DNA of 64,000 bases from a virus, in IMG/VR virus record IMGVR_UViG_3300017731_000001. One strand, 5' to 3'. Positions 2,284 to 56,012 of the stretch are shown here, piece after piece. The stretch's first letter is position 1. Every line of letters begins with the position of its first letter. The position numbers and the translations under genes were made by a program. The notes under the pieces are model-generated. The model was not told where the DNA came from and did no database searches. It saw only the letters and a list, made by a program, of their open reading frames with translations.

Positions 2284-2496
2284 ATGATAATGAATGAGAT
2301 AGTTAAGGTATGGAAGTATACTCTGGGTAGTTTTAATGATGAAAAGACTGAGAGATATGATAATATTATTTGTATTCTAAGAACGGGTATATTACTGACT
2401 TATCTGTTGACGAATGTCTTTATTGTGGCAGGAGTGGTGAGACACTGGAATTCAGTTAAAAGTGTATCCATTGATACAGAATACATTAAAAAATAG
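2284..2496 (+). CDS. Small membrane protein, cyanophage hypothetical
   Basis: One hydrophobic segment, VWKYTLGSF...VVRHW pattern, directly follows the previous stop. Confidence 0.65.
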   Translation: MIMNEIVKVWKYTLGSFNDEKTERYDNIICILRTGILLTYLLTNVFIVAGVVRHWNSVKSVSIDTEYIKK

Positions 2497-2527
2497 GTTT
2501 TAAATATGATTATAAATATAAAACTCT

Positions 2528-2601
2528 TTTTTAACAAGGTTGTGGAAAAGTGTATTATTTGTGTGGATAAACCCTTATATTAGTTGTTTATCTGTGGAAA
2601 A
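2528..2601. promoter_or_regulatory. Cluster of DnaA-box matches
   Basis: TGTGGAAAA at 2541 and 2593 (reverse complement TTTTCCACA), TGTGGATAA at 2562 (reverse complement TTATCCACA), and a degenerate opposite-orientation TTTTTAACA at 2528. Confidence 0.6.
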
Positions 2602-2611
2602 CTATGAGTAT

Positions 2612-2703
2612 AGTATCTTCCAAGTATCTTCCAAGTATCTTCTAAGTATCTCTTAAACCTTAGATCTAATATCTTTAAGTATCTCATAAACCTCACATCT
2701 TAT
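2612..2703. repeat. 11-bp phased tandem repeat (AGTATCTTCCA) with a 33-bp higher-order unit
   Basis: Units at 2612, 2623, 2634, 2645 and an in-phase copy at 2678; 2643-2670 resembles 2676-2703. Confidence 0.9.
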
Positions 2704-2715
2704 GCAAGTTTAGCG

Positions 2716-2744
2716 AGCGTATCATGGAGAGCGCGGTTTGTCAA
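2716..2744 (-). promoter_or_regulatory. Sigma70-type promoter firing leftwards into the repeat/DnaA-box region
   Basis: Minus strand reads TTGACA-17bp-TACGCT with TG of an extended -10. Confidence 0.6.
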
Positions 2745-2845
2745 CCCACGGGACGCGAAATTTTTCTCGACGAGACATAAATTGTAACATAAAGACATCT
2801 TATAGTATAAATATATTGATTATAAATCTCGTCTAGATCTTACAT

Positions 2846-2875
2846 TTGACATAGAACGAGATTACATGATATAAT
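2846..2875 (+). promoter_or_regulatory. Consensus sigma70 early promoter
   Basis: TTGACA(2846)-18bp-TATAAT(2870) with TGn extension. Confidence 0.8.
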
Positions 2876-2902
2876 CATACAATAGATATCTCGACGAGAA
2901 CC

Positions 2903-3082
2903 ATGAACGACTACGAGACATTCTACATATGGGACTACGAGACATCATGTCATGATACTCGCGACGAGATGTATATGCTCGACGAGATGCATCATGATAC
3001 ACAATACACATATGATCTAGATGATGAATATGCACGAGATAGCACAGACTATCAGGCACTTGCATATAGACATTACGCATGA
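2903..3082 (+). CDS. 59-aa acidic Tyr-rich protein (not in ORF track)
   Basis: MNDYETFYIWDYETSCHDTRDEMYMLDEMHHDTQYTYDLDDEYARDSTDYQALAYRHYA, directly downstream of the 2846 promoter. Confidence 0.6.
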   Translation: MNDYETFYIWDYETSCHDTRDEMYMLDEMHHDTQYTYDLDDEYARDSTDYQALAYRHYA

Positions 3083-3088
3083 TATAAT
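3060..3088 (+). promoter_or_regulatory. Sigma70-type promoter
   Basis: TTGCAT-17bp-TATAAT with TG extension, overlapping the 3082 stop. Confidence 0.6.
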
Positions 3089-3112
3089 ACGTAAACATCA
3101 CACGAGATACAC

Positions 3113-54313: not shown

Positions 54314-56012
54314 AAATATTAAGTACAAGAATTTTTTAAGTACTGGAAATAATTGGACTGAGATTGACTTTCAACAATATAATACAAACCTCATCATTGG
54401 AACGAATGGTGCGGGAAAAAGTTCTATGTTGGATGCACTTACCTTTGTATTGTTTAATAAACCATTTCGCAAAATTAATAAACCACAACTAATCAATACC
54501 ACAAATGAGAGGGATTGTTTGGTTGAGATTGAGTTCTCTGTGAATAGTCGTGATTATTTGGTTCGTCGTGGAATTAAACCAAATGTATTTGATATTGAGG
54601 TGAATGGTAATCCACTTCATAAGGAAGCAGATGATCGTGCCAATCAACGCATTCTTGAAGAGAGTATTCTCAAGGTAAATTATAAGTCATTTACACAAAT
54701 TGTAATCTTAGGTAGCAGCACCTTTGTGCCTTTCATGCAACTCACAACTTCTAATCGTCGTGAAGTGATTGAAGATTTGTTAGACATTCGCATCTTCTCT
54801 GCGATGAATAATTTGGTTAAAGAAAAACTTAGGATAATGAGGGATCAATCCAAATCTTTAGATCTGAAAAAAGATAATGTCAGAGATAAGATTGGGATGC
54901 AGGAAAACTTTATTAGCGAACTTGAAGAAAGGGGAAATGCCAATATAAATGCAAACCAAGAAAAAATTAATTCTTTGGATGCAGAAGTTCTTTCCTATAT
55001 GAAAGAGAATTCTATCCTTGAAGAAAATGTATTTAAGTTTATTAAGGAACAAGAAACTGTCATTGGAGCAGGAGAAAAATTAGTAAAACTAAACAATCTT
55101 AAAGGAAAACTCTCTCAAAAAGTAGGCACAATTACCAAAGAACATAAGTTTTTCACCGAAAATACGGTTTGTCCTACTTGCACTCAGGACATAGAAGAGG
55201 AGTTTAGGTTAAATAAGATTGTAGACGTTCAAAATAGAGCAAAAGAACTTCAGAGTGGTTATCAAGAACTGGAAACCACCATTAAGTTTGAACAAGAAAA
55301 AGAACGTCAATTCAACTCACTATCTAAGGAGATTACTAAACTCAATAATGGCATTTCTCAAAACAATACTAGAGTATCTGGATGTCAACGACAAATCCGA
55401 GATTTGGAATCGGAAATTCAGAGACTTACCCAGCAAGTTGCAAATAGAAATACTGAACATGAGAAGTTAGCAGAGTTTAAAGTAACCCTCCAAAATACAA
55501 TTGAAGACCTGTCTGATAAAAGGATTGAAATGTCAAATTATGACTTTGCATATTCATTGCTTAAAGATGACGGTGTAAAAACAAAAATCATTAAAAAATA
55601 TATTCCTTTCATTAATCAACAGGTTAATCGTTATCTGCAGATGATGGATTTCTATATTAACTTCAATTTGGATGGTGAATTTAATGAGACAGTAAAATCG
55701 CCAATTCATGAAGATTTTTCTTATGCTTCTTTCAGTGAGGGTGAGAAAATGAGAATTGATCTAGCACTTCTTTTCACATGGAGAGAAGTTGCCCGTGTTA
55801 AGAATTCTGTAAATACGAATCTTTTAATTATGGACGAAGTATTTGATTCTTCACTTGATGGATTTGGCACAGAAGAATTTCTTAAAATTATTAAATATGT
55901 CATTAAGGGTGCTAACATTTTTGTAATATCTCATAAATCAGATTTGCATGATAAATTTGACAATGTAATAAAATTTGATAAGATAAAGGGGTTCAGTAGA
56001 AAGGTATCATGA
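54300..56012 (+). CDS. gp46: Recombination ATPase gp46 (Rad50/SbcC-like)
   Basis: GTNGAGKS, zinc hook CPTC, FSEGEK, DEVFD and ISH. Confidence 0.96.
   Translation: MITFKNIKYKNFLSTGNNWTEIDFQQYNTNLIIGTNGAGKSSMLDALTFVLFNKPFRKINKPQLINTTNERDCLVEIEFSVNSRDYLVRRGIKPNVFDIEVNGNPLHKEADDRANQRILEESILKVNYKSFTQIVILGSSTFVPFMQLTTSNRREVIEDLLDIRIFSAMNNLVKEKLRIMRDQSKSLDLKKDNVRDKIGMQENFISELEERGNANINANQEKINSLDAEVLSYMKENSILEENVFKFIKEQETVIGAGEKLVKLNNLKGKLSQKVGTITKEHKFFTENTVCPTCTQDIEEEFRLNKIVDVQNRAKELQSGYQELETTIKFEQEKERQFNSLSKEITKLNNGISQNNTRVSGCQRQIRDLESEIQRLTQQVANRNTEHEKLAEFKVTLQNTIEDLSDKRIEMSNYDFAYSLLKDDGVKTKIIKKYIPFINQQVNRYLQMMDFYINFNLDGEFNETVKSPIHEDFSYASFSEGEKMRIDLALLFTWREVARVKNSVNTNLLIMDEVFDSSLDGFGTEEFLKIIKYVIKGANIFVISHKSDLHDKFDNVIKFDKIKGFSRKVS

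Follow-up and report, generated by a model that had tools for sequence, protein, structure and literature searches.

A stretch of 64,000 nucleotides from the viral record IMGVR_UViG_3300017731_000001 (hereafter the window) derives from a T4-like cyanophage whose closest sequenced relative is Synechococcus phage S-SKS1 (about 86% patchy identity). Sequence comparison marks positions 2485–2744 of this window as a single-copy, gene-free control module common to many T4-like cyanophages, and as the best candidate for the place at which the virus would start or time its own replication. It would be a phage origin-like element using host DnaA sites; a literature search found no paper on DnaA boxes or on such a module in these phages, and to our knowledge no replication origin has been mapped in a T4-like cyanophage. 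Read from right to left, the module comprises a putative leftward promoter for host RNA polymerase, a zone of direct repeats and an A+T-rich block, and all of its elements are contained in a non-coding gap of 406 bp (2497–2902). In the S-SKS1-like lineage a cassette of three helically phased, presumptive DnaA boxes of the host type is set directly against the block. We tentatively favour the view, to which we would give a little less than an even chance, that the module is an origin resembling T4 oriF and oriE, made up of a promoter and an unwinding element and assisted, in this lineage, by host DnaA.

Approximately 100 related loci were gathered from IMG/VR with two independent baits, the core of the AT-rich block and the promoter block; they have in common an AT-rich block, a repeat zone that varies and the leftward promoter. 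Genome-wide counts were made on the S-SKS1, P-SSM2 and Syn9 genomes beside the 64-kb window. A first-pass annotation had drawn attention to an AT-rich stretch at about 2485–2535, to three co-oriented DnaA boxes within 61 bp with a degenerate box opposed to them at 2528, and to a minus-strand TTGACA-17-TACGCT promoter transcribing across all of these. Each of these features is in place, and the promoter proved to be conserved over the approximately 100 related loci.

The AT-rich block (2485..2535), in which 45 of the 50 bases at 2485–2534 are A or T, is a candidate DNA unwinding element. It is the sixth least stable 50-bp stretch of the window (z 2.8) and forms an imperfect palindrome with A and T runs at its sides. 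Its core (2495–2520) fits the pattern AGGTTTTAAATA-N3-TTATAAATATA, which has exact matches in 58 IMG/VR contigs and occurs once in each of the complete genomes of S-SKS1 and P-SSM2; degenerate forms of it are present in the lineages sampled via the promoter bait. The block was also considered as a late promoter of the T4 type (TATAAATA), an identification which was rejected as a general one since promoter-sampled lineages often have TTTAAATA or TTTTAAATA instead.

The leftward promoter (2716..2744, minus strand) is predicted to be of the sigma-70 type, with a -35 hexamer TTGACA (2744–2739), a 17-bp spacer, an extended -10 TG (2724–2723) and the -10 hexamer TACGCT (2721–2716); transcription would start near 2709. 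Among 59 loci with enough flank, which were found by the AT block alone and hence collected without the promoter as bait, TTGACA-17-TAnnnT occurs in 57 and the remaining two possess TTGACG as the -35; the spacer is always 17. Over the loci the -10 is written TACGCT, TAGCCT, TATGCT, TAGAGT, TACGGT or TAGCGT. When 44 distinct sequences were aligned the six -35 bases, the TG of the extended -10 (separated from the hexamer by one base) and the first two bases of the hexamer, TA, were invariant, and the last T of the -10 was kept in at least 90%. RNAalifold assigned zero pairs to these 44 promoter-region sequences, and the reading of this GC-rich block as a structured RNA was discarded; conservation confined to polymerase contact bases, together with the lack of RNA pairs, fits a sigma-70-type promoter and not a structured RNA. 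Because TACGCT matches only three of the six positions of TATAAT, a simple promoter scanner does not list this site; the support for it is comparative. An A/T tract at 2757..2766 (minus strand), some 50–58 bp upstream of the predicted start, is a possible UP element; many lineages have an AAATTTTT-like tract in the same place. The AT-rich block lies 175–225 nt downstream of the predicted start, and about 60 nt at the shortest in relatives which are devoid of boxes. Promoter and block together span approximately 130 bp in the shortest versions of the module, in which as few as 97 bp lead from the block to the -10.

Between these two elements the window carries three perfect DnaA boxes, all in the same orientation. 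Box 1 (2541..2549, minus strand) reads TGTGGAAAA on the plus strand and TTTTCCACA on the minus; box 2 (2562..2570, minus strand), 21 bp from box 1, reads TGTGGATAA and TTATCCACA, respectively; and box 3 (2593..2601, minus strand), 31 bp from box 2, has the same sequence as box 1. The spacings of 21 and 31 bp correspond to about two and about three helical turns. Box 1 lies about 20 bp past the AT core, and the intervening bases are also A+T-rich. The sequence TTTTCCACA is the cyanobacterial DnaA-box consensus (PMC4674748), in agreement with the canonical and cyanobacterial identity originally proposed for these boxes. The degenerate inverted box, TTTTTAACA (2528..2536, plus strand), departs from TTWTNCACA by one mismatch, and three of the related loci (L032, L099 and L118) possess a perfect inverted box at the equivalent position.

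Local enrichment of the boxes is borne out for the cluster and not for the window as a whole. Given a strict-box background of 2.6e-5 per bp, measured outside such clusters in the window, S-SKS1, P-SSM2 and Syn9, three boxes within 61 bp have a Poisson expectation of 2e-6 in 64 kb, and none of 300 Markov simulations gave three boxes; loose boxes (TGTGNAWAA), on the other hand, number 9 in the whole window against 11.5 expected. Across 81 distinct loci the density of boxes is 2.88 per kb in the zone versus 0.019 per kb in 672 kb of flanks, a difference of about 150-fold. No DnaA homologue was found in the genomes of S-SKS1 or P-SSM2; the reader of the boxes would therefore be host DnaA, which is the only plausible one that the sequences suggest. 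A genome-wide scan for two boxes 21 bp apart returned at least 120 matches over many phyla, many cyanobacteria among them, so that the arrangement is generic and gives no evidence for capture from a host oriC. Syn9 (NC_008296, 52573–52597; L096 about 2074–2098) has two perfect DnaA boxes, opposed and 16 bp apart from start to start, inside the annotated gp86, which belongs to the region of small early genes that precedes the baseplate genes; a further box is found at 54597.

Where the three boxes are present they are nearly invariant. The 27 box columns of 12 distinct three-box loci show a mean difference of 0.006 per site, and the only change is A/T at the degenerate W position; it constitutes the single variant of box 1 (pairwise difference 0.019 per site), boxes 2 and 3 showing none. 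The fixed 12-nt spacer differs by 0.20 per site and the flanks by 0.23 and 0.46, while the spacer preceding box 3 varies in sequence as well as in length (12, 13 or 22 nt). Judged from these substitution patterns the boxes are under purifying selection. In their distribution over related phages the boxes are far from universal: only 28 of 87 evaluable loci have them, in seven arrangements. These include three forward boxes spaced at 21/31, 21/22 or 21/21 bp, an inverted box followed by two or three forward ones, and inverted-then-forward pairs. In every arrangement, and on differing module backbones, the boxes adjoin the AT block. In two of the loci (L103 5838–5961 and L104 8477–8600, together with about 250 bp leftward) a pair of boxes, inverted then forward (TTTTCCACA, 14 nt, TGTGGAWAA), lies beyond the AT block and not between block and promoter.

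The boxes and the 11-mer array lie in an exchangeable cassette (2534..2671), which is delimited by comparison with L016. The similarity of this locus to the window runs to 2533 (83%) and resumes at 2672 (81%); the 75 bases which it has in between are unrelated and contain no box. In S-SKS1, whose module lies at about 151.3–151.5 kb of the genome, the homologous gap (L001 3944–4432) has the same order of elements, a nearly identical AT block, three boxes at offsets identical to those of the window with diverged spacers, five 22-bp tandem repeats where the window has its 11-mers, and a minus-strand TTGACA-17-TAGAGT. P-SSM2 and one single-cell viral contig have kept the AT block and the promoter and are without boxes. 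On these alignments the boxes are an exchangeable add-on and not the core of the module, and since they are optional DnaA cannot be its general initiator.

The remaining space between promoter and boxes is occupied by direct repeats. Four tandem 11-mers with an AGTATC core (2612..2655, plus strand) read AGTATCTTCCA twice, then AGTATCTTCTA and AGTATCTCTTA, and a fifth AGTATC follows at 2678–2683 (plus strand). The array had been described as phased 11-mer repeats; four tandem copies are indeed present, and comparison reveals them as a local expansion of a widespread AGTATC motif with an unstable copy number. Over 44 distinct loci the zone has 7.4 AGTATC per kb and the flanks 0.48 per kb (about 15-fold), with 47 forward and 7 reverse copies, and the motif is present in 27 of the 44 zones. 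In lineages without boxes a pair of AGTATC motifs lies 20 and 30 bp past the AT block, exactly where the first box of the window begins, and relative to these lineages the copies of the window are displaced about 70 bp rightward. In a contig from an RNA library (run X17) 66 bp of the array are missing (window 2620–2687), and IMG/VR relatives have 1 to 4 copies of the 11-mer; the array is length-polymorphic in nature. Just downstream of the predicted leftward start there are, in addition, two copies of a 28-nt unit, 33 bp apart (2643..2703, plus strand), each with CTYWTAAACCT; the alignment has a related motif, YTCATAAA ... CAGRTCTTRTG, at this place which is conserved in most lineages.

How might these elements work together? 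T4 origins are understood as DnaA-independent. We assume that a leftward transcript would enter the easily melted block, form an R-loop there and prime leading-strand synthesis. Host DnaA on the boxes may help to open the AT block, or may gate the transcript or the R-loop, and the DnaA-bound boxes would in this manner tie phage initiation to the state of host DnaA. Binding of DnaA, transcription from the promoter, R-loop formation and initiation of replication at the module are all things which we infer only, from the sequence. The hybrid origin (DnaA plus R-loop) put forward in the first-pass annotation thereby survives in part: the elements, the selection on the boxes and the T4-like architecture are consistent with it, while the boxes are not the core of the module and DnaA is not its general initiator. 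A bolder formulation, which is possible though doubtful, holds that a group of lytic T4-like cyanophages has, through a swappable box cassette, connected host DnaA to an origin of its own built from promoter and unwinding element, that initiation is gated by the DnaA-ATP state of the host, and that the sister cassettes recruit other factors.

The origins oriF, oriG and oriE of T4 are built from a promoter, an A+T-rich unwinding element and direct repeats; minimal origins consist of about 100 bp of promoter and DNA unwinding element, and an R-loop in the latter primes the leading strand (PMC3016281). Like oriF (uvsY) and oriG (gene 34), the module is a compact non-coding promoter with an A+T-rich unwinding element downstream in a T4-like phage (PMC3016281), and its minimal version of approximately 130 bp compares with the approximately 100 bp of T4. 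At the level of sequence both the promoter leading into the element and the unwinding element itself are found. Unlike oriF and oriG, which have MotA-dependent middle promoters, the module has a host sigma-70-type promoter with a perfect TTGACA and an extended -10, and is therefore no strict member of that class, though it may work alike. The early-mode, host-type promoter together with evenly spaced direct repeats (12-nt iterons in T4, 11 nt here) is reminiscent of oriE, the iterons of which, like the repeats of the module, are also found at syntenic places in relatives (PMC3016281). Both an early-mode promoter and a cluster of short direct repeats are thus present, the latter with unstable copy number. 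None of the T4 origins, oriE included, possesses DnaA boxes, nor are these origins conserved in sequence between one another; the role of the T4 iterons is itself unproven, and for the module R-loop and origin activity are predictions. The likeness to oriE is drawn from architecture and not from sequence.

In the oriC of E. coli the box beside the unwinding element (R1) has the same relative orientation as here, AT-rich DNA being followed by TGTGGATAA. Co-oriented, helically phased consensus boxes abutting an A+T-rich block are a feature which the module shares with bacterial oriC (PMC8287927; PMC4674748). The DnaA-trio rule of bacterial origins, which calls for at least three (NAN) within 16 bp of the proximal box (PMC8287927), is matched here only at its loosest level. 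Going from box 1 into the AT block, AAA-AAA-GAG begins 8 nt away, and by a rough estimate such minimal trios arise by chance in about half of comparable AT-rich sequences. Unlike a bacterial oriC the module has three to four boxes, no dnaA or dnaN neighbour and a promoter through the boxes, which moreover are dispensable in most related phages. Iteron replicons that use host DnaA boxes include P1 oriR, F oriS, pSC101 and RK2 oriV. With these the module shares the combination of A+T-rich DNA, DnaA boxes and tandem direct repeats within a short non-coding segment. They require an adjacent rep gene whose product binds the iterons, whereas no initiator gene was found beside the module, so that the pattern of an iteron plasmid does not apply. 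Phage lambda encodes an initiator of its own, O, whose gene contains the iterons, and DnaA stimulates pR in the transcription-coupled activation of ori. Host DnaA as an accessory to such activation, and not as initiator, is what we propose for the module also; in lambda, a phage of a different type, the DnaA sites act on pR.

Several observations weigh against an origin at this place. GC and AT skew were computed on the complete genomes of S-SKS1, P-SSM2 and Syn9. The co-orientation of the genes makes the curves monotonic, and in neither S-SKS1 nor P-SSM2 does the cumulative GC skew change sign at the module. Once the trend is removed, the GC curve of P-SSM2 reaches its global maximum less than 1 kb from the module (AY939844 about 66 kb, L003), where a bacterial origin would give a minimum, and that of S-SKS1 has no extremum at the locus; we regard skew as uninformative here. 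No copy of the module was recognised in Syn9 with three patterns; for this phage a single theta origin has been predicted (PMC2984593), which is the one origin statement that the literature search brought up for these phages, and no link was found between that prediction and the module. A Pfam search of ten flanking open reading frames (ORFs) gave only 2OG-Fe(II) oxygenase, DUF6171 and DUF7249 and found no initiator (Rep-like) gene, though an initiator placed elsewhere or of a novel kind is conceivable. T4-like phages can replicate largely through recombination, and a conserved origin is therefore no necessity. To this may be added that about two-thirds of the related loci are devoid of boxes, that the AT block is not the single least stable site in 64 kb, that the -10 is weak by E. 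coli standards, and that the number of 11-mers ranges from 1 to 4 among near-identical relatives.

The most serious alternative, though still an unlikely one, is a DnaA-responsive transcriptional switch which is not an origin, the promoter and AT block forming a unit that regulates or insulates where the upstream genes meet the early cluster. With host DnaA bound at +110 to +170, leftward transcripts, or late ones reading through from the left, would be stopped or modulated, and the phage would in this way sense the replication or energy state of its host. DnaA regulates transcription at dnaA, nrd and mioC, and stimulates lambda pR. It is an established transcription factor (PMC4447404). The boxes lie within the predicted leftward transcription unit, between promoter and AT block, and are optional and exchangeable as a regulatory add-on would be; the module is immediately upstream of strong early promoters with operator-like palindromes; and the GC skew gives no origin signal. 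Against this, no coding capacity is conserved in the leftward transcript, the structure of which is neither conserved nor unusually stable, and it therefore has no evident regulated product; the upstream genes vary between lineages, which makes antisense control of one gene unlikely. Furthermore, the boxes stay beside the AT block and not beside the promoter, and those of L103 and L104 are even found on its far side.

That the boxes serve as a datA-like sink, many phage copies titrating host DnaA and stopping re-initiation in the host with no role in phage replication, had been offered beside the hybrid origin and must be regarded as improbable; nothing specific was found to support it. The boxes are of high-affinity consensus type, helically phased and strongly conserved, S-SKS1 and P-SSM2 have no DnaA gene of their own, and clustered chromosomal sites are documented to titrate DnaA in E. 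coli (PMC12371093). Each genome, however, would contribute only three boxes, those elsewhere being at background density. T4-like phages commonly degrade or shut off host DNA. A cluster of DnaA boxes is indeed what the module has in common with datA, a locus which in E. coli lowers free or active DnaA and includes an IHF site; yet a sink could be placed freely, and all seven independent arrangements are in one module beside the AT block, a fixed placement which argues against a pure sink.

The region might also specify a small non-coding RNA, a leftward product of about 200 nt ending at the AT-rich palindrome with its T runs, in which GAUACU/GGAAGAUACUU repeats bind or sponge a protein or RNA and the box matches are incidental; we consider this most improbable. 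The promoter is conserved, as are, moderately, the first 40 or so nucleotides past the start, the AT block is an imperfect palindrome between A and T runs, and contigs from RNA libraries of two studies cover 2416–2749. These contigs, however, carry neither strand nor transcript ends and may represent DNA carry-over. Those of three RNA runs end at 2749, which is where co-occurring lineages diverge (cccac then G or A), and we therefore read this shared end as an assembly branch point and not as the end of an RNA. The body of the RNA cannot be aligned across lineages, entire cassettes being exchanged; it shows no consensus structure, the predicted leftward RNA folds no better than shuffled sequences (z -0.99), and Rfam and tRNA scans gave chance-level AT-rich matches only and no Rfam family. 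Selection coincides exactly with the 9-bp DnaA consensus and lets through no change except A/T, which DnaA also tolerates; this points to a site acting at the level of DNA. A 35-codon minus-strand ORF starting from the ATG in GGTTTATGAG was rejected, as relatives do not keep this ATG (CTCTTAAACC or CTTATAAACC).

In T5-like phages about eight DnaA boxes are retained in non-coding, repeat-bearing DNA which is not regarded as an origin (bioRxiv 10.1101/866236), and the module resembles this injection-stop region in that a lytic phage has conserved host DnaA boxes in repeat-rich non-coding DNA. A comparable tether, in which the boxes would bind membrane-associated host DnaA and hold or position the incoming genome, is hardly credible here. 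T4-like genomes are circularly permuted with no fixed leading end and no two-step injection (PMC3016281). The T5 arrangement is also absent: there the eight boxes are paired at a distance of 3 bp inside inverted repeats of the terminal repeat, and a role in two-step entry has been proposed for them (bioRxiv 10.1101/866236), whereas the boxes of the module are co-oriented, 21 and 31 bp apart, and outside inverted repeats.

The proposed origin with host DnaA as helper would be of more than local interest. If host DnaA acts at the module, phage replication would be coupled to the replication state of the host, and such coupling would bear on the diel and nutrient dependence of cyanophage infection. 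Should the cassette be swappable in the sense outlined above, initiation would follow the cell cycle, light and energy, and the module would be a hybrid of oriC-type melting with T4-type R-loop priming and the first defined origin in cyanomyoviruses. T4-like cyanophages rank with the most abundant viruses infecting the main photosynthetic bacteria of the ocean. The module can be recognised by its sequence, is conserved and single-copy, and a fragment of about 130–300 bp is suited to cloning; S-SKS1 on Synechococcus WH7803 provides a cultured model with the same trio of boxes, and natural variants with and without the cassette are open to comparison.

All genes flanking the module are on the plus strand. 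On the 5' side of the gap are found a 2OG-Fe(II) oxygenase, two cysteine-rich DUF6171 proteins and a 70-aa ORF which ends at 2496; on the 3' side a series of tiny early genes begins at 2903, with a gp6-like baseplate gene about 6 kb beyond. In one lineage (L101 2567–3082, minus strand; also L105, L113 and L131) a 171-aa HNH_3 homing-endonuclease gene, oriented in the direction of the leftward promoter and just downstream of it, fills the space up to the upstream genes, and the usual AT block is absent. The small early genes are presumably served by a strong rightward promoter, TTGACA-18-TATAAT (2846..2875, plus strand; 12 of 12 matches, with TG). Between the leftward and rightward promoters there is another very unstable A+T stretch (2777–2826), the fifth least stable 50-mer in the window. 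Palindromes of the TCTCGNCGAGA type stand on either side of the early promoter and, together with about ten copies of ACGAGA, are distributed over 2765–3110, extending into a 59-aa ORF; they look like the operator of some regulator. In relatives a palindrome of this type is found between or beside the -35 and -10 of the early promoter, P-SSM2 (L003 about 2640–2700) being an example. The first early gene past the module (window 2903–3082; L101 3417–3587; L001 4433–4636) specifies a very acidic, Tyr/Asp-rich protein of about 56–67 aa. It gave no Pfam match, and the proteins of the window and of L101 have in common the C-terminus DY.ALAY+HYA.

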